In this document: piece after piece, positions 52,401 to 61,400 of the stretch
Numbering within the stretch: the stretch's first letter is position 1
Layout: every line of letters begins with the position of its first letter
DNA from: Gemmatimonadaceae bacterium
GTDB lineage: Bacteria; Gemmatimonadota; Gemmatimonadetes; Gemmatimonadales; Gemmatimonadaceae
Assembly (NCBI GenBank): GCA_040901985.1
Contig: JBBDYC010000007.1
Span: forward strand, 55,657-119,656
Length of the DNA: 64,000 nucleotides
Reading direction: 5' to 3'
Made by a program: the position numbers

Positions 52401-55400
52401 CACAGTCAGCGCCGTCGCGCGCTCGGGCCGCAGCGCAGTCACTGTCATCGCAACGCGAACCGCCGCAGAATCGCCATCCCCGTCCCACGGATGGTCCGCG
52501 ATAGCCCACGTGACTCTGGCGCCTCGCTCGGCAGCAGCGGAAACCACCGCGCGATTCGACTTCTGCACGATGCTGTTCGTGGTGATCAAGCCAGCCCGCT
52601 GTACACGCCCATCGGCCACTCGCCGAGCGGCCTCCGCCCACCAGTACATCACAAGGTCCACGCCCTCGGAGATGTCGCCGCGCACGGCGCGCAACGCCTC
52701 GACGTAGCCATCACCAAGCGCCGTGCGCATCCGCTTGTTTCCTACGTATGGCGGATTGCCTACGATGAAGTCGGCATCGGGCCACTCCGCAGGCCGAGCA
52801 TTGACGTATTCGTAGTACCGCAACTTCGCGTCAGGATCAGGCACGAGCTTCCCAGTCACGGCATGCTTCACACGAGGCGTAGGATCAGGCACATCCTTCT
52901 CCGGCCTATGCACCACCGCGTCGTACGCCAGCACCGCATCTCGGCACTCAATCGTCCCGGTATCCTCAAGAATCGGATTCGGCGGCGTCCGCCCACCGTG
53001 CGTCTCTCGCCAGAACTGGTGATAGCCAATCCACAGCGTCAGCTCCGCAATCTCCCTTGCCCACGGCTTGATCTCGATACCAAAGAACTGCCGCGGATGC
53101 ACTTCGTCCAATACCAGCCCGCCCTGCCCGCCGCTCAGCCGCTGAATCTCGTTCAACACCTCGTGCTCAATGCGCTTTACCGCCGCCATCGTCACATAGA
53201 GAAAGTTGCCGCTCCCGCACGCGGGGTCGAGAAAGCGCAGTCCGCGCATCCACGTGTGGAACTCCACCAACTCCTTGATCGCCGCCGTGCGATCCCTCTT
53301 GATCTGCGGCGCCTTCTTCCCGCTCTCGTCGATGATCTGCAATACCACTGCCTGCACGGCCGTCCACCGCTCGCGAATGGGCTCCACTACCGTCGGTTCC
53401 ACCAACCGCTCGATGTACTCGCGCGGCGTGTACTCTGCGCCAAGCCGGTGTCGCTCCTCAGGGTCGAGCGCGCGCACGAGTAGCGTGCCAAAGATGCTCG
53501 GCTCCACGCGGGACCAATCGTAGGAGGCGGCCTCAATTAGTAGTGCGACATCCGATGCTTCGAGGGGGAGCGCCTCGCGCGTCTTAAAGAAGTGCCCATT
53601 GAACCGATGCAACAGTTCCGCGCCATACATCCCGCCCTCGTCCATCGTCCTCCAGAGCAGTTCGAGCGCCGCCTTGAGACGCGCGGGATCACCGGAGCCG
53701 CGCGCGGCCTCGAGAGTCTTGCGGAAGAGTTGGTCAGGGAGCAGGCCCACATCTTCGGCAAAGCACGAGAACACCGCGCGCATCAGAAAGCGCGCGACCC
53801 GCTCCTGATCGAGCCCGCGCCCCTCGAGCGCCGCCGCGAGGGCGGCCAACCGACCGGCGATATCTTTTGTCACCTCTTTCGCCCACCCGCGCGGGTCGCG
53901 AGCAGCAGGGCGGGCGAATACGTCCTGAAGGAGAGCGACGTCGTCGACTCGCTCGTGCAGCGAGCTAAGGGCTATGTGGCGGCCCGCGCCGAAATCACCG
54001 TAACTCCCGCTCCACCGATCCCACAGAATGAGGGTGCGGGGGACATCCACCACCATCAAGTACGGTGGCGGCGTACCAGAAACGTGCGAGGCGTAGTTGC
54101 GCACCTGCCCGAACGCCTTGCGAAGCAATGTGTCGTTGGCGCGACCGGGTTCAGACATCTTCGCCTCCATCGCGAAGTGGCCGGCGTGCCAGGCATCTAT
54201 GTAGTTGGTGGCCAGCTCGCCGTCGCGATCCACAACACGGACAGGGAGCTCAAAGCGGTAGTCGTCGGTGGGCGTCGCGGGCGCAGGGACGCCGAGAGCT
54301 TCGCAAAACTGGAGGAACCAAGTTTGGAACGAGGCGCGCTCGTTGGCCTCGACGCCTGCCCAGCGGACGGTGAGTTCCCTGAGCTTGCCAGCGGCTTCCT
54401 TGGCCGTGAAGAGCGGATCGGTCACGCAGGGAGAATGGCATCCGGCACCGACTCACGCCAGCGGTCTACCGCTCCAGGCTGATCCCCACCTAAAAGTCGA
54501 CGACCTGACGAACGCGCATTGAGCCAGTCCGCACCGGACGAGCCGCGCGCGACCGGAACTGACCAACACTTCTGAATTGCGTGGGTGCGGGCCAGCGACT
54601 CATCAACGCGGCGGCAACATCCACATCGCTCGTGCGAGTGCTCCGGAGAACAGTTCGTCACATGGCGAGCCTTCTTTGGAATGCATACCCAGCGGCGAAT
54701 TCGGCCATCTTCTCGGACCGCCTCGGACTCCGGCGCTTGGATGGCGCGCTGGATCCACTCATCGCGGACCTGGGCACGGTCGGGCCGTAGCTGGGTGTAT
54801 CGAAAGTACTCCGTGGACTTGAAGACGCGCAGATTCCTCTAGTCGGGATAGAGCGTTACACATCAGCTGCGCGCCCATCCAGCCGGGTACTCTTGTGCGA
54901 ACCGCTAACATATACGAGCGCAAGTACTTCGACCGAACCTGCGTGACAGCTGCATATGCTCGTCAGACTTCACCTGTCGACGCCGCTATGGTACCAGTGT
55001 ATTGAGCAAGCTATTTGCCTGCCGCCGTTCAACGCGGGTAACAAAGTCTCGAATGTTCGGCACGCCATACAGTACGCTCAGTTCAGCCACCGCATCCTGC
55101 GCCTTTCGTGTGCGGCACATTGCATCGAACGGATAATCGGCGATTGTTCGGAATGTGTCACGCCCACGGGACCTACCGACAGGCAGCGTGTTCCCGCTAT
55201 TGATCGGTGTTAGCTCAATCGAGTCAGCGTACGCCTCCACGAGGGGGCGCGTATGGATGTGAAGAACTGTGTGCGCCCTTCCGCGGTACGCCCTCGCCGA
55301 CAGCAGTCGAAGGAGCCTTTCTTCTGAAAGCCAGAAGAACACGCGCTGATTAATCAACTCATACCACTTTCGTGGCGTAATCCCGTCCATGAGACAGTGG

Positions 55401-58400: not shown

Positions 58401-61400
58401 CGTCGCGAACGTCCTCCTTGGGGACGACAGCAATACCTAGGTGCTCAGCGAGGTTCATCGGCTCAAAAGGAGGCCCTGACCAGCCGGATTCGAGCGCGCG
58501 GTAGACAACCTCTCTCGCGCGCTCGATCACCTCCTGGACCGGATCAGCGGTGGTCGCCAGGAGCAGCACCGAGGGATTTGTCCAGTGCGCTACTTTTCTT
58601 CTCAACTGTGTAATCGGCTGTAGGAGGACGGACTTGCAGGCCGGCTGATGATGCCGAAGGCTTCTCGAAGGCGCAACGGGTGAAATCTAACGTGGGCTTC
58701 CGCTGTGAACGCTCATATAAAAGGGTTTGGCAAGGCGTCCGCAACCAAGCCTAGGTCATCACGGACGCCCCGCCCAACCCAATCCGCACCGCGTTCATCG
58801 GCAGCAAGCGTCGTTATGCCGCAATCACGGGGAGTCCAGTCCTAATTGCTGGAATGCGAGTTTCTTCAAGAGCTCCTTTAACACATCGTATGGTAACGCT
58901 TCCGCCTTTCTCAACGACGATGCCGGTCGCTTTGCGCCAAAGTGTTTCATTCTTCGCATTCGCAAGAAACTGGTGGCCATCCCACGTGAGCCGCTCGAGG
59001 TGAACTGCAACGACACGCGCCTCACCCATGCCTCCATGATGAGCTTTGCCTTCGATAAGCCCCGCTTCCATCAGGAGTTCTGCATGCTCAAAGACGTCAT
59101 CGTCTTCGCGATCCTCTAGCTGCAGCTCCGGATAGGTGTTGGCAGGCGCCGCCTCCATCGCGAGGAGGATTTCTCGAACCAGCCCGTAGTCCAGCTTCAT
59201 GTGTCCTCTTGATAGAATCTGTCGCCGTCGGCATCACGTTTGCTCCAGCCGCAATCCCTACTGCGTTTGCGCTTATCGGAAGCACGCGTCGTCGTGCCCC
59301 ATCTTCGAGGCGACCCAACCTCAGTCCGTTGCGCCGTGAACGGTAATGATTGTTACAGAGCCATTTCGAGGTGGGTGCTTCCTTCTCCGCACGCTCGGTT
59401 GCGACCTGTACATCGCGATTGCCTGAAGCATCTCGATGCGACTTAGGCGTCGATAGGCGAGCACGTTATACGTGAACGTTCTGGCCTCATCGATCATTGA
59501 CGTTCGCACGTTTGGACTCTGCATTGAAAGCCTCCCGGAAACGCAAGGAGTCGAGGTCGTGTGGGCCTACTTGTCGGCACGCTGCGAGAGTGCGCTCGCT
59601 GCAGCAGAGCGTTCGGCAGGTGTCGAGTGCGGGTCGCGGAGCACGGCTGACGCTCGCGACGCTGCGCGCTCACTCGTCACTTCGACCGCACTGCGATGTT
59701 GGGTGAGCGCACTCGCCGCCGCTGAACGTTCGGCTGAAGTGGACGCTTGGTTTGCGAGGACCCGAGCTGCGCGGGAAGCTGCAGTCCTACTGGTCTGCCT
59801 AGGCATCGAATGGCTCCTGAAGGGGTCACCCGAATGGATAGCGAAACCGAATAAAGACCGCAAGTGCTTGTTCGCGTCCGTCGGCACGCCGAGCCGGTAG
59901 CGAGCGTCGTTATGCCGCTCCGTCCGCCAAACGCCCCACCGCATCTGAGAGCGTGTAGTGGACAAAACGCTTGCCGAGTTCGGTCAATACGTACGGCTTT
60001 TCATCGTCGAATGCAGTTTCCAGCGTCGCAGGTGCGGGGCCACGTCTCTTGGCGGGCCGCTTACGAACGAATTGTCCCAAGGCGTTGACGTCCCTCTCGT
60101 GGCGAATGACTCGGCCTATGCTGAGGTCACTGATCAGCATCTTGAATAAGTCGGCCTCGGCCGAGTCTTCTCGCGGTAGATCGCCGTAGAGCGTCGACCA
60201 GATGTCGAAGCGCGTAGCGCCGGGGTTCGCGTAGACGTGGCGAATCACCGCGAAGTGCGACTCGTGGTAGGTGTCCAGCCACTCGATGAACAGTCTTACG
60301 ACATCGTCAGCGGAGGCGCGAGTGCCCGCGGCGTTCGTAACAAGATTGGCGGCGTACCCACGCTTCTCGGCTGTGTCCGCGTTGTCCCATGTCTTGAACG
60401 TCTTGCGAACAATAGCAAGATACTCCTCGCTCTCCACACGTTCTGAAACCGTGTCGCCGAGGGTATCGAAGCGACGCTGCATCTCCTCGAGTGTCTCGCG
60501 AAGAATCCGAAGTTTGCGCTGGTGCTCCTCCAGCCACTTAGTGCGGAGATCGTCTGCGTGACCGGCGCGCTTCTCGCCAGGCACCGCAGCAGCGACGCTT
60601 AGGACTCCACCGACCCAGGGAATGCTCCCAAGGGCGGCGAGGACGACCTTCTCCGCAATCTGGCGCTTGCGCGATGGCGAAGTGCGCGCGAGCTCTTCAC
60701 GCAGCTTCGCGACGAACTCGTCGTCAGGCTCGATGTGAATCAAATCAGTCATTCGCGCAGGTCGGCATCACGTCAGCTCCTGCTGCGGCCGTTCCAGTGA
60801 AATGCGGGTGGGCGGCCACGCCCCACCAACCCAAAATGAAGGCGTGGCCGCCCACCCGCTTCCGCACCCACGGCCGCCGGCAGCAAGCCTCGTTATACCG
60901 CGTCGCTGCTACAGTGCGAGCAACGTTTGCCGCGCAGACGCTCGCTGATTAGTCTTCGGAAATGTCCCGAAGACACCCCGAACCGCGTCCGCCGTTGCAC
61001 TGGACCCATCGGCCCGCGAATGCCGATGGGCCAAGATGTGCGCGACGAACGCGAAGCTGTCGCGTGACCTGGGAGTTCTGCGTCTTGGTGGAAGCGCGTC
61101 AGATACTCGCGCGCAGGACTGCCGTTGGCAAGGGCTTCGCGCAACGGGCATTAAAGAGAGGTGAGTGCTGTGCCGAAGTACACCGGGCGCATCGGGAGGC
61201 TGTCGACTGCTGCAAACGACAGGCCGTTCAATGACCAATATTCCCAGTACGCAGAAGCCGCCGGGCCGAAACGATCCTTGCCCGTGCGGAAGTGGAAGGA
61301 AATGGAAGAAGTGTCACGGAGCGGCGGTCCTAACTCATCGTTATGCCTCGGTTGACGACCAGTCTCTTGCGGAATTCGTCGAACGAGATCGCGCGCAGCA

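Follow-up and report, generated by a model that had tools for sequence, protein, structure and literature searches.

A conserved three-gene module with a DarT-like transferase, a PurZ-like synthetase and a sensor-protease/macrodomain protein, probably a novel bacterial conflict system

Three adjacent genes from a Gemmatimonadaceae bacterium, which code for a DUF7002 protein (g928), a protein that joins a nucleotide-kinase domain to a homologue of adenylosuccinate synthetase (g929) and a metalloprotease sensor fused to a macrodomain (g930), form a module whose conservation is far beyond chance, and which is apparently undescribed so far, no published account of it having been found in the literature. 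At a probability of roughly 0.4, we read it as a conflict module that moves horizontally, is most likely directed against phages and operates by abortive infection or by a toxin-antitoxin-like action. The window analysed is a stretch of 64,000 nucleotides, and all coordinates given below are positions in this window, not contig positions.

The locus and its surroundings

The survey's finding of a three-gene unit was confirmed as a whole, in that three intact open reading frames lie on the minus strand: g928 (54986..55651, 221 aa), g929 (55645..57237, 530 aa) and g930 (57244..58605, 453 aa). The genes had been described as overlapping, which holds for g929 and g928, where the stop codon of the former (55645..55647) lies within a 7-nt overlap, ATGGTGA, with the start of the latter, but not for g930 and g929, which are separated by 6 nt. 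The g929 and g928 genes are translationally coupled. The start previously given to g930, an ATG at 58458 (Met50), proved too short and drops 49 conserved residues; since the alignments of all 38 full-length homologues begin at query residue 1-8, and the only in-frame start codon ahead of the invariant Trp8 is the TTG at 58605, the start was reset to 58605.

The trio sits in a low-GC island (0.56-0.58 over the module genes, versus 0.69-0.74 before 48 kb in the window) that adjoins, outside the module, an MmeI-type Type IIG restriction-modification (RM) enzyme (51039..54425, minus strand; Pfam MmeI domains, full-length PADLOC match to REase_MTase_IIG, 1239.8 bits). Farther along the same strand are a 229-residue DUF7380 fragment (50326..51015), whose match to the PADLOC candidate PDC-S39 (179.1 bits) is confined to the first third of that profile, positions 8-223 of 615, and a DDE transposase (49492..50325). 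The defence or mobile setting that had been proposed for the module is thus upheld, and it recurs elsewhere: RM, Abi, STAND, ubiquitin-like, toxin-antitoxin, recombinase, transposase or phage genes occur within approximately 6 kb in 10 of 13 other loci, the remaining 3 of the 13 having no recognisable defence or mobile neighbour. Most copies of the module are chromosomal and lie among RM and Abi genes. PADLOC holds no model for g928 or g929, and it is from gene context that a role in defence is probable.

Conservation and distribution

DUF7002 proteins number 996 at E<=0.001, and relatives are encoded at no fewer than 559 metagenome loci. A g929 homologue lies alongside in 66 of 67 metagenome loci found by way of DUF7002, with the kinase domain in its fused position in 40/40 of those having enough upstream DNA. 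Conversely, genome loci found through g929 carry DUF7002 in all 11 cases with downstream DNA, and all three genes in 10/10 with both flanks. Among 2.9 million viral contigs only 3 have DUF7002, with the trio in 2/2 that include an upstream flank. The conserved gene order reported by the survey was therefore seen again in independent genome, viral and metagenome sets, and g929 and g928 are the obligate core. The macrodomain gene is present in 26 of 30 metagenome loci; given that it is missing from the other four while the kinase-synthetase and DUF7002 are obligate partners, the earlier proposal of a DarG-like antidote stands as to the presence of a macrodomain, but this gene cannot provide the only antidote. 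Distribution of the module is patchy: DUF7002 occurs in 4/301 genomes of the phylum and in none of five other genomes of the genus.

The DUF7002 protein g928

The product of g928 matches Pfam DUF7002 (5.5e-69), and its AlphaFold2 model is of high quality (pLDDT 95.1, where 93.7 had been noted before; pTM 0.91). As the survey had proposed, the model has an ADP-ribosyltransferase (ART) fold nearest to DarT1 and DarT2: the best Foldseek match is DarT1 (8baq, 1.7e-4), and four DarT entries head the VIA comparison with Z scores of 10.9, 9.8, 9.0 and 8.8 over 156-160 aligned residues, DarT1 (10.9) being nearly tied with the DarT2 entries (9.8-8.8). Next come two Tpt1 entries (Z 7.3, with 99 residues aligned, and 6.7), followed by protein-targeting ARTs of the cholera/LT, OspC3 and pertussis kinds (5.7-6.6). 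Six residues are invariant in the family (H16, R56, R73, D74, N151 and E190), and the placement of H16 on the first strand and of E190 at the opening of a late strand corresponds to the arrangement in DarT, whose motifs run YH..., ...FYF..., ...AEF in that order. At the level of sequence or profile, no homology between DUF7002 and DarT was detected (hhalign probability 2.6%), and a DUF7002 profile search of the PDB returned nothing relevant; the target class of g928, be it DNA, RNA, protein or a small molecule, has consequently to be read from fold rank alone.

The kinase-synthetase g929

Residues 1-187 of g929 (56677..57237, minus strand) make up a P-loop nucleotide-kinase-like domain that matches Pfam AAA_18 (2.4e-7) as well as AAA_33, and falls with Atlas clusters of the AAA_17/18 type annotated as dephospho-CoA, (d)CMP or dNMP kinase. 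Over 40 sequences, G10 and D88 never vary, while S9, G15, K16 and R122 are retained in at least 90%.

Residues 188-530 (55648..56676, minus strand) form an adenylosuccinate-synthetase domain of Ser type (Pfam Adenylsucc_synt, 2.1e-58), whose P-loop GSEGKG (residues 197-202, 56632..56649, minus strand) places Ser198 at the position of the catalytic Asp13 of PurA, aligning with GDEGKG in 2d7u and GSTGKG in 6fko. This signature, also claimed by the survey, is supported: Ser198 is invariant in 40/40 aligned members, along with K201, N222, H225, Q361, R450, R451 and D478; the P-loop reads GSEGKG in 120/120 family matches; and Ser is found in 125 of 131 representatives holding a P-loop. A separate long PurA is encoded in 6/6 carrier genomes checked, including a canonical PurA in the source genome, and the domain is an extra paralogue, not the housekeeping enzyme.

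Membership in PurZ, as had been proposed, fails on several counts. The Ser and a 2-residue loop insertion (RV[GA]G.SG) are common to g929, PurZ and PurZ0 and missing in Asp-type PurA; however, g929 retains an Arg at the equivalent of Arg303, like PurA, which binds ribo-IMP, where PurZ and PurZ0 have Lys, and the adenine/ATP-recognition motif NF.N/Q of PurZ reads TF.D. PurA-like Arg and Asp are kept at two substrate positions. Both curated NCBIfam cut-offs are missed (299.5 vs 368 for archaeal-type PurA; 218.7 vs 300 for PurZ), and phmmer against the PDB scores Pyrococcus horikoshii PurA at 198.9 bits and phiVC8 PurZ at 130.3 bits. Passages of PMC8342488 associate the Ser-type P-loop with a 2-amino purine substrate, and the few residues from which a substrate would be predicted point both ways. 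Phylogenetically, the module clade groups with viral Ser-type enzymes (Ser-type clade SH-aLRT 97), which agrees with the split from housekeeping PurA put forward earlier; that split is not robust, because a grouping of the module with short archaeal PurA of the Asp type was not rejected by an AU test (delta lnL 0.59, p 0.48; only four such PurA in the tree).

Homologues of adenylosuccinate lyase are neighbours of the module in only 5/95 loci, in three of these (L005, L109 and L125) on its own strand, and are extra copies where this could be checked (4 Lyase_1 genes vs 3). These additional lyases suggest a PurA/PurB-like amination towards 2-aminoadenine nucleotides. Z-phages, according to part of a preprint (10.1101/2025.10.22.683976), require exactly PurZ, PurB and GMP kinase.

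The sensor-macrodomain protein g930

The survey's assignment of g930 as an M78 peptidase joined to a macrodomain is borne out by Pfam (Peptidase_M78, 2e-10, residues 54-178), PADLOC (capP, 2e-18; DarG macro, 2.2e-7) and Foldseek. The N-terminal part of the model (pLDDT 85.0) matches IrrE/PprI (8slm/3dte, 2.7e-10 across approximately 265 columns), the IrrE/PprI complex with ssDNA (8sln) and CapP (7t5t, 5.9e-8). In its HExxH zinc motif (58300..58314, minus strand), His98 and His102 are invariant and Glu99 nearly so (>=90%) among 27 aligned homologues.

The C-terminal macrodomain (approximately residues 283-440; 57286..57759, minus strand) belongs to the SCO6735/Bt_1257 subclass of the ALC1-like class. 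Its nearest structures are Bt_1257 (2fg1/2afc, 34-36% identity, TMt 0.91-0.92; 1.4e-14 for 2fg1) and SCO6735 (5e3b, 38% identity, 3.6e-12), followed by Poa1p (5.9e-9), TARG1 (4e-8) and the weaker DarG (5m31, 2e-7); the NCBIfam antitoxin_DarG score of 25.1 bits is far below the cut-off of 250. D307, Q364 and the loop HMPRIGTG..GG.W are invariant. SCO6735 hydrolyses thymidine-linked ADP-ribose on DNA, reversing thymidine ADP-ribosylation by DarT, and acts on proteins too, as stated in passages of PMC9411070.

Alternative readings

The survey had seen in DUF7002 a DarT1-type, guanine-specific DNA transferase, with the macrodomain as a DarG-like antidote and the synthetase acting on guanine nucleotides, guanine being the base modified by the toxin. 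DarT1 is indeed the single best fold match of g928, a P-loop of the Ser type suggests a 2-amino purine substrate and the macrodomain has weak DarG HMM matches, but the DarT2 entries follow closely, and in the systems described in passages of PMC11543638 guanine-specific DarT1, whose modification is reversed by NADAR, goes with the latter, macrodomains being the partners of thymidine-specific DarT2. With a macrodomain of the SCO6735 type, no NADAR found by Pfam in any neighbour scanned and the macrodomain gene missing from 4/30 loci, the link to guanine by way of DarT1 was not upheld, and this version is unlikely. A protein switch resembling DraT/DraG, in which DUF7002 marks the kinase-synthetase or another protein, the macrodomain unmarks it when M78 fires, and the kinase-synthetase is the effector that drains or poisons the guanine nucleotide pool, would accord with the obligate pairing and coupling of g929 and g928, with protein-targeting ARTs among the fold matches, with the action of SCO6735 on proteins and with the toxicity of Z-cluster expression in E. 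coli (passages of PMC8342488). It too is improbable, given that the top four fold matches are all DNA-targeting DarTs and exceed almost all protein-targeting ones in aligned length, CopC (154 residues) and OspC3 (146) coming near to them in this respect but only at Z 6.6.

That a mobile element might instead employ the PurZ-like pathway together with the transferase to modify its own DNA or nucleotides and evade host restriction, as Z-genome phages do, draws on the many viral members of the Ser-type clade outside the module clade: relatives are encoded on no fewer than 339 IMG/VR contigs, 50 of the 76 best viral matches classified are nearest to unnamed short representatives (38-99% identity), and the trio is also present on 3 viral contigs, on one of them beside a terminase. 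This is quite unlikely in view of the rarity of DUF7002 on viral contigs, the absence of DatZ-, MazZ- and DpoZ-type partners from Pfam scans of neighbours and the chromosomal RM and Abi setting of most copies, a sensor protease with an ART/macrodomain pair being better suited to conflict systems. Very improbable is a role in RNA repair or end processing, with DUF7002 as a Tpt1-like 2'-phosphotransferase, the macrodomain as a phosphatase acting on ADP-ribose-1''-phosphate in the manner of Poa1p and the P-loop domain as a polynucleotide kinase; the rank of Tpt1 directly after DarT, the Poa1p match and the AAA_33 match of the kinase speak for it, but Tpt1 aligns over only 91-99 residues, and the synthetase domain, linked lyases and M78 sensor would be left without a role.

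Proposed working of the module

By homology, a conflict module of this composition could work as follows. DUF7002 would use NAD+ to ADP-ribosylate a nucleobase, probably in ssDNA as DarT does, or possibly in a nucleotide, and this modification would arrest replication, the macrodomain stripping off the ADP-ribose and allowing the cell to survive. The M78 sensor, responding to ssDNA or DNA damage in infection, would tip the balance between transferase and macrodomain. The synthetase may join aspartate to GMP or dGMP, a 2-amino-6-oxopurine nucleotide, GTP being the probable phosphate donor because g929 retains the guanine-binding Asp; the adenylosuccinate lyase of the host, or an additional one linked to the module, would then yield a 2-aminoadenine (Z) nucleotide, to be phosphorylated by the fused kinase, a step performed in Z-phages by host GMP kinase. 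Such a nucleotide could poison nucleic-acid synthesis, or be the base supply for the transferase. The module thereby unites a DarT-like transferase, a relative of the phage enzyme that makes 2-aminoadenine, and a protease that senses damage, fused to a domain that removes ADP-ribose; it probably represents a novel type of conflict or defence system in bacteria.

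Locus organization and genomic setting

The module consists of three intact ORFs that follow one another in the same orientation on the minus strand: g930, encoding an M78 protease-sensor followed by a macrodomain (57244..58605), g929, encoding a P-loop kinase fused to a PurZ-like synthetase (55645..57237), and g928, encoding a DUF7002 protein (54986..55651). The stretch ATGGTGA is shared by the stop of g929 and the start of g928, and 6 nt separate g930 from g929. The start of g930, placed at 58458 in the survey's finding, is revised here, since the alignments of all 38 full-length homologues begin at residues 1-8 of a longer ORF, whose TTG at 58605 is the sole in-frame start ahead of the invariant Trp8. 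The GC content of the module region is 0.56-0.58, versus 0.69-0.74 before 48 kb, in a source genome of 2.64 Mb that is 99.97% complete. The window represents the final 64 kb of a 119,656-base contig, so that the far edge of the island lies outside view, and as it carries no tRNA gene, no integration site is visible. A scan for promoters and terminators was uninformative, with 3 and 2 sites versus 2.2 and 3.5 in shuffled sequences. No RNA dataset is recorded as containing this region; one DNA run does contain it and is possibly the origin of the sequence.

The gene immediately downstream of the module encodes a Type IIG RM enzyme, matched over its full length (PADLOC, 1239.8 bits). A 229-aa DUF7380 protein (50326..51015, minus strand), which covers only positions 8-223 of the 615 in the model of the PADLOC candidate PDC-S39 and is abutted by a DDE transposase (49492..50325, minus strand), looks like a defence gene shortened by insertion. 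A protein with MASE9 and HD-GYP-type (HD_5) domains (48136..49488, plus strand) sits at the GC drop; its PADLOC Cas3-HD matches are weak and involve the HD domain only. Directly upstream of g930 lies a DUF2513 protein (58814..59200, minus strand), a neighbour not conserved with the module, while a 563-aa protein (61165..62856, plus strand) displays only a SEC-C motif and weak E2-model matches.

Defence or mobile genes were recognized within ~6 kb of the module in 10 of 13 other loci, and none were recognizable in L001, L003 and L005. Represented among these neighbours are Type I RM (two occurrences), Mrr, GmrSD, AbiEii, Abi_C, DUF4041-T5orf172, SocA/Panacea, nSTAND1, ThiF with multi-ubiquitin, a serine recombinase, a transposase, TrwB, phage CII and a terminase. 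In a further, metagenomic locus, L085, the module copy is located between a HerA-like ATPase and a DUF3375 and SbcC-like ATPase pair (13-1434, 3874-5313, 5912-9283), the latter being presumably Wadjet/JetABC-like. The distribution is sparse within the phylum, with DUF7002 present in 4 of 301 sampled genomes and in none of five other genomes of the genus.

Linkage of the three genes

Searches with g929 in genomes yielded 12 loci in all, 2 of them cut and two from archaeal MAGs. DUF7002 is present in all 11 of these loci with downstream DNA, and all three genes are found in 10/10 loci with both flanks, nine of them in the same order; in L011, the macro gene is inverted and lies downstream of the module. 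Among metagenome loci found with DUF7002, of which the best 80 of at least 559 were examined, the synthetase lies directly upstream of DUF7002 in 66 of the 67 loci offering at least 300 nt (the miss being L060), the kinase part is fused in 40/40 with at least 1750 nt, and 26 of the 30 loci that extend for at least 3300 nt have the M78-macro gene upstream. Only three viral contigs carry DUF7002, and the full trio is present on both of those that include the upstream flank.

The absence of the macro gene in 4/30 loci indicates that the core of the module consists of the kinase-synthetase and DUF7002, and that the macrodomain is not the sole counterweight to the transferase. The four variants carry Abi_2 (L072), an HTH gene with a stand-alone M78 gene (L103), or ORFs of no recognizable kind (L095, L123). 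A ~470-aa ORF recurs in convergent orientation downstream of DUF7002 in five loci: L072 (8705-10114, minus strand), L103 (8708-10129, minus strand) and L123, which have no M78-macro gene, and L081 and L100, whose contigs are too short to tell. This ORF belongs to no Pfam family and, in the Atlas, to unnamed clusters only; it may represent an alternative third component.

DUF7002 is a separate family with a DarT-like fold

DarT enzymes ADP-ribosylate bases in single-stranded DNA, employing a His of the NAD site on strand 1 and a catalytic Glu, which is E160 in the T. aquaticus enzyme and E152 in that of E. coli C7. The only Pfam family reported on g928 is DUF7002 (5.5e-69), a family of 996 proteins at E<=0.001 among 1543 candidates, and nothing was reported for g928 in PADLOC or NCBIfam. 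An AF2 model of g928 built from 55 sequences (pLDDT 95.1, pTM 0.91) recovered, in this order by Foldseek, DarT1 (8baq, 1.7e-4), M. tuberculosis DarT and cholera toxin A1. A second aligner, VIA, gave Z scores of 10.9 (8baq), 9.8 (7omu), 9.0 (7omv) and 8.8 (7yk3) over 156-160 aligned residues, Tpt1 being the next match after DarT, with Z 7.3 over 99 residues. H16 and E190, invariant in the 55 sequences, map to strand 1 (residues 13-19) and to the start of a late strand (190-194) of the model; the motif order is the same as in the DarT alignment, the comparison being one of order.

At the level of sequence, hhalign of DUF7002 against a 7-sequence DarT alignment, from which L135 (of the unpublished genome G105) was left out, returned a probability of 2.6% over 28 columns, and a PDB profile search with DUF7002 found no DarT and no ART. 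A fold match without a sequence-level link leads to the recognition of DUF7002 as a separate ART family with a DarT-like fold, outside Pfam DarT (PF14487). The DarT1-like fold proposed in the survey's finding is upheld to the extent that 8baq is the best structural match; DarT2 entries, however, score nearly as high, and base specificity is consequently unreadable from the fold. A complex prediction of g929 with g928, each supplied as an alignment, gave a score of 0.00 and no verdict. It is of note that the source genome encodes a separate Pfam DarT homologue outside the window (contig 9, 306565-307113), which scores 65.6 bits within a 352-aa open frame, and that DarT-family genes are present in 17/301 genomes of the phylum, a tally that includes G105 and is the only claim to draw on that genome.

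A protease-sensor fused to a DNA-ADP-ribose hydrolase-type macrodomain

Foldseek analysis of the g930 model (AF2, pLDDT 85.0) recognized two separate parts. Residues 1 to ~270 match IrrE/PprI over ~265 columns (2.7e-10), including the PprI-ssDNA complex 8sln, and also CapP (5.9e-8; PADLOC capP 2e-18). In the HExxH motif, H98 and H102 are present in all 27 aligned homologues and E99 in at least 90%; g930 thus displays both the motif and the two-domain fold of the M78/IrrE/CapP group, with a sensor-like domain following the protease as in the IrrE/PprI-DdrO and CapP-CapH systems. Unlike these systems, the protease is fused to a macrodomain, and no HTH repressor gene conserved beside the trio was found among the neighbours scanned, the variant locus L103 alone carrying a classical pair of HTH and stand-alone M78 genes. 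CBASS was considered and rejected, since the capP match reflects the M78 fold only and the trio has no cyclase. In four loci, an ECF-like sigma factor with weak Sigma70_r2/r4 matches is found directly upstream of the M78-macro gene (L009 2783-3439; L051 3773-4771; L057 3116-3772; L075 4079-4762).

The macrodomain, which ends around residue 440 of 453 and is followed by a tail that is disordered in the model, conserves D307, Q364 and HMPRIGTG..GG.W in the 27 homologues. Its closest relatives are Bt_1257 (2fg1/2afc; Foldseek 1.4e-14, 34-36% identity, TM 0.91-0.92) and SCO6735 (5e3b; 38% identity), with TM values of 0.88-0.92 over both, and the next matches are ALC1, Poa1p, TARG1 and DarG. The catalytic residue of DarG is Lys80. 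SCO6735 and Bt_1257 are described as a bacterial subclass of ALC1-like macrodomains, and SCO6735 as reversing thymidine-linked ADP-ribosylation by DarT both in vitro and in cells, while lacking the catalytic Lys of DarG/TARG1 and requiring Gln85 instead (PMC9411070). Gln364 of g930, invariant and located ~81 residues into the macrodomain, is the putative equivalent of Gln85, as judged from spacing rather than from superposition. These relatives are stand-alone proteins, whereas the macrodomain of g930 has a protease-sensor fused in front of it and an ART gene linked to it. The NCBIfam DarG model (NF048014) scored 25.1 bits on the macro part only, against a cut-off of 250, and there is no domain C-terminal to the macrodomain; g930 is therefore not a DarG orthologue. 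The survey's proposal that the macrodomain acts as antidote stands insofar as an eraser-type macrodomain is encoded beside an ART, but its absence from the 4 macro-less loci indicates that it is not the sole one.

g929 carries a kinase-like domain and a Ser-type synthetase

Residues 1-187 of g929 form a generic NMP-kinase-like P-loop domain (Pfam AAA_18, AAA_33), for which Atlas clusters carry the labels of dephospho-CoA, (d)CMP or dNMP kinase; across 40 sequences, G10 and D88 never vary, and at least 90% retain S9, G15 and K16. In predicted structures of other bacterial clusters, this kinase-like domain (window 56677..57237) is found fused to RNase_H_2 and HARE-HTH.

Residues 188-530 constitute a short adenylosuccinate-synthetase domain. 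Its raw score is higher against P. horikoshii PurA (198.9 bits, full length) than against phiVC8 PurZ (130.3) or S-2L PurZ (105.5). Against the PurZ HMM (NF038379) it reached 218.7 bits, below the cut-off of 300, and against the archaeal PurA HMM 299.5 bits, above its PurZ score yet below the cut-off of 368; for TIGR00184/NF003295, the values are 217.8 versus 395.55 and 299.5 versus 368. A canonical long PurA with the GDEGKG motif (564 bits) is encoded elsewhere in the source genome, and a separate canonical PurA is also found in 5/5 other carrier genomes. The possibility that g929 is itself the housekeeping PurA was rejected, given the missed curated cut-offs, the Ser at position 13 and the canonical enzyme elsewhere in the genome; the survey's statement that it is not a PurA is borne out, with a separate PurA in all 6 carrier genomes checked. 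Its proposed signature, Ser in place of the catalytic Asp13 of PurA, is also supported, Ser198 occupying this place in 40/40 aligned members and in 120/120 family hits. K201, N222, H225, Q361, R450, R451 and D478, part of the catalytic machinery, are invariant in the 40 sequences, and we take their E. coli equivalents to include His41, Gln224, Lys331 and Asp333. The synthetase domain is a predicted active enzyme.

The residues that bear on the substrate point partly to PurZ and partly to PurA. In the phage PurZ group Ser is reported in 147/147 sequences, whereas Asp13 is conserved at 99% in a PurA group of 251 sequences, and four archaeal sequences with Ser or Gly are described as basal to the PurZ group (PMC12884076). 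In S-2L PurZ, Ser23 is positioned next to the 2-amino group of dGMP, the adenine of ATP is read by N305, F306 and Q308, and ribonucleotides are excluded by a loop insertion together with a distant Arg303 equivalent, as described in PMC8342488. Module members share with PurZ and PurZ0, a related phage enzyme, a 2-residue insertion after RV (RV[GA]G.SG), which is absent from Asp-type PurA; insertions of this type are also present in viral Ser-type enzymes. The longer PurZ loop insertion is absent from g929 of the window, and many module members carry a Q.P. insert. At the Arg303 equivalent, the module and Asp-type PurA have Arg, and PurZ and PurZ0 have Lys. At the donor-base motif, the module has TF.D in place of the adenine-recognizing N-F-x-N/Q of PurZ (NF.N), PurZ0 has T/S-M/F-.D and Asp-type PurA TK.D. 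These residues suggest that the substrate is probably a 2-amino-6-oxopurine nucleotide and that GTP is probably the phosphate donor. It should be noted that the donor preferences of PurZ0 and PurZ are worded differently in PMC12884076 and in the preprint 10.1101/2025.10.22.683976.

Phylogeny of the synthetase

An unbiased search of 1.84 billion representatives returned 8981 hits. Among the best 150 of these, 131 have the P-loop, with Ser (125), Gly (3), Asp (2) or Leu (1) at the Asp13 position. A single one of 77 short representatives scored above the archaeal PurA cut-off, and none above the PurZ cut-off. Close relatives of many of these short enzymes occur in viruses: an alignment-based scan located relatives on at least 339 IMG/VR contigs, and scans of viral contigs with one protein at a time as query (P0297, P0353 or g929) gave no confirmed relative. 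The 76 best viral hits were classified; 50 of them are nearest to an unnamed short representative (38-99% identity) and the remaining 26 to the PurZ0 of actinophages. The short Ser-type viral homologues (IMG/VR loci L149-L228), most of them with GSEGKG, score below the cut-offs of the curated models for both PurA and PurZ, which suggests that there are many more PurZ0-like phages than those named.

Two trees were constructed, from both of which a Thermoplasmata long PurA with a GDEAKG P-loop (L020) was omitted. In the FastTree phylogeny (143 rows, rooted on long PurA), short Asp-type archaeal PurA are basal, all Ser-type rows form a single clade (support 99), and the module clade (support 99) comprises 55 rows, of which 47 are fused and 8 short. 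A short IQ-TREE search (LG+C20 PMSF, 83 rows) gave SH-aLRT values of 98 for the module clade, 97 for the Ser-type clade, 99 for PurZ and 100 for PurZ0, as well as a 48-row clade of PurZ, PurZ0 and 40 short rows that excludes the module (support 89, not starred). However, in an AU test, a tree placing the module with Asp-type short PurA, of which four rows only were sampled, was just 0.59 lnL worse (p 0.48). The branching of the synthetase with PurZ and PurZ0, as the survey's finding had it, is seen at the level of the Ser-type clade (support 97-99), with the module outside the 48-row clade, and the alternative with archaeal PurA is not rejected; the AU test argues against a firm reading of the tree, and the label "PurZ-type" rests more on shared signature characters.

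Linked adenylosuccinate lyases

Among 664 ORFs of 95 loci, adenylosuccinate lyase (ASL, PurB) is, next to the trio itself, the most recurrent neighbour family jointly with the ~470-aa ORF, each in 5 loci. The lyase homologues are located in L005 (7956-9290, plus strand), L006 (7449-8789, minus strand), L072 (11255-12004, minus strand), L109 (3559-5022, plus strand), where the gene is directly downstream of DUF7002 and on the same strand, and L125 (918-1952, plus strand), where it is directly upstream of the macro gene, also on the same strand. ASL-specific C-terminal domains are present in 4/5 linked lyases, which are diverse, with 27-38% mutual identity and two C-terminal domain types. The linked lyases are extra copies where this was checked: Lyase_1 genes number 4 in the two carrier genomes with an adjacent lyase and 3 in a related genome that lacks such a neighbour. 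The density of purB is about one per 2-4 Mb; by rough estimate rather than formal test, well under one lyase neighbour would be expected by chance over the ~0.4 Mb of flank.

In Z-phages, whose DNA contains 2-aminoadenine (Z), the formation of dZTP is reported to require PurZ, host PurB and host GMP kinase (preprint 10.1101/2025.10.22.683976). The module resembles this pathway in enzyme kinds, carrying a synthetase, which is of the first kind, a kinase, in fused form, and in some loci a lyase; it also shares the Ser for Asp13, the RV[GA]G.SG insertion and the short archaeal-type scaffold. It differs in being cellular rather than phage-borne, in a synthetase that is fused to a kinase, forms its own clade, falls below the PurZ HMM cut-off and retains PurA-like Arg and Asp at two substrate positions, and in its coupling to an ART; DatZ, MazZ and DpoZ were found neither among the neighbours in the window nor among 105 neighbour ORFs of the 13 loci.

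A probable mobile conflict module resembling DarTG

The best-supported picture is that of a mobile conflict module, in which the DarT-fold transferase DUF7002 would act as the effector, the DNA-ADP-ribose-hydrolase-type macrodomain of g930 as the eraser and its IrrE/CapP-type part as the sensor, and g929, an obligate component, would carry out a PurZ-like amination of a purine nucleotide. Relative to DarTG, the module is a new variant. As in DarTG2, the gene for a DarT-fold ART, with putative counterparts of the DarT Glu and His in the same motif order, lies beside one for an ALC1-like macrodomain in a defence or toxin-antitoxin setting. The ART, however, has no sequence or profile homology to DarT, the macrodomain is of the SCO6735 type and is located C-terminally behind an IrrE-like protease with no DarT-binding domain after it, and a kinase-synthetase gene, which is obligate where the macrodomain is dispensable in 4/30 loci, stands between the two. 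As to DarTG1, its toxin DarT1 (8baq) is the structure that DUF7002 matches best. Among the module neighbours scanned there was no NADAR partner, and the guanine specificity of DarT1 is not transferable, its fold score being near that of DarT2. The argument of the survey's finding that the synthetase acts on guanine, the base modified by DarT1, is weak: in the known systems described in PMC11543638 guanine-ADP-ribose is erased by NADAR and macrodomains pair with thymidine-ADP-ribose.

Other explanations of the module include a switch acting at the level of proteins, self-modification by a mobile element, and RNA repair. A bolder extension of the conflict-module picture would have a cellular immune system manufacture Z nucleotides. 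In this scheme, DNA synthesized during infection would receive Z through the joint action of the kinase-PurZ-like fusion and either PurB or a linked lyase, and the DarT-like enzyme would ADP-ribosylate the 2-amino group of Z. Infection-time DNA, largely that of the phage, would thereby acquire a chemical tag and be blocked, older host DNA would be spared, and the macrodomain would erase mistakes. We consider the scheme very improbable. If true, it would make the module the first Z pathway in cells, and phage PurZ would have in it a candidate source or sink.

Biological significance

PurZ-type enzymes have so far been known as the key step in the replacement of adenine by 2-aminoadenine in some phages. 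Cellular enzymes of this type now appear to form a large and strongly conserved clade, which is kinase-fused and almost always coupled to the uncharacterized DarT-fold family DUF7002 (at least 996 proteins). No paper was found on DUF7002 or on this gene combination, and in the main text of a domain-centric 2026 survey of defence systems (PMC13069673) neither adenylosuccinate nor macro, M78 or DUF7002 is mentioned. The obligate coupling of a transferase to a kinase-PurZ-like enzyme is without a described counterpart in the literature found. The fusion in g930 of an IrrE/CapP-type sensor protease with a likely DNA-ADP-ribose hydrolase is also a new architecture for proteases of this group. The module consists throughout of small, soluble-looking enzymes that are amenable to standard assays. 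If the proposed chemistry is true, the module would tie purine-base amination to ADP-ribosylation-based conflict systems, would provide the first cellular route to Z-type nucleotides, and would render the origin of phage PurZ directly testable.
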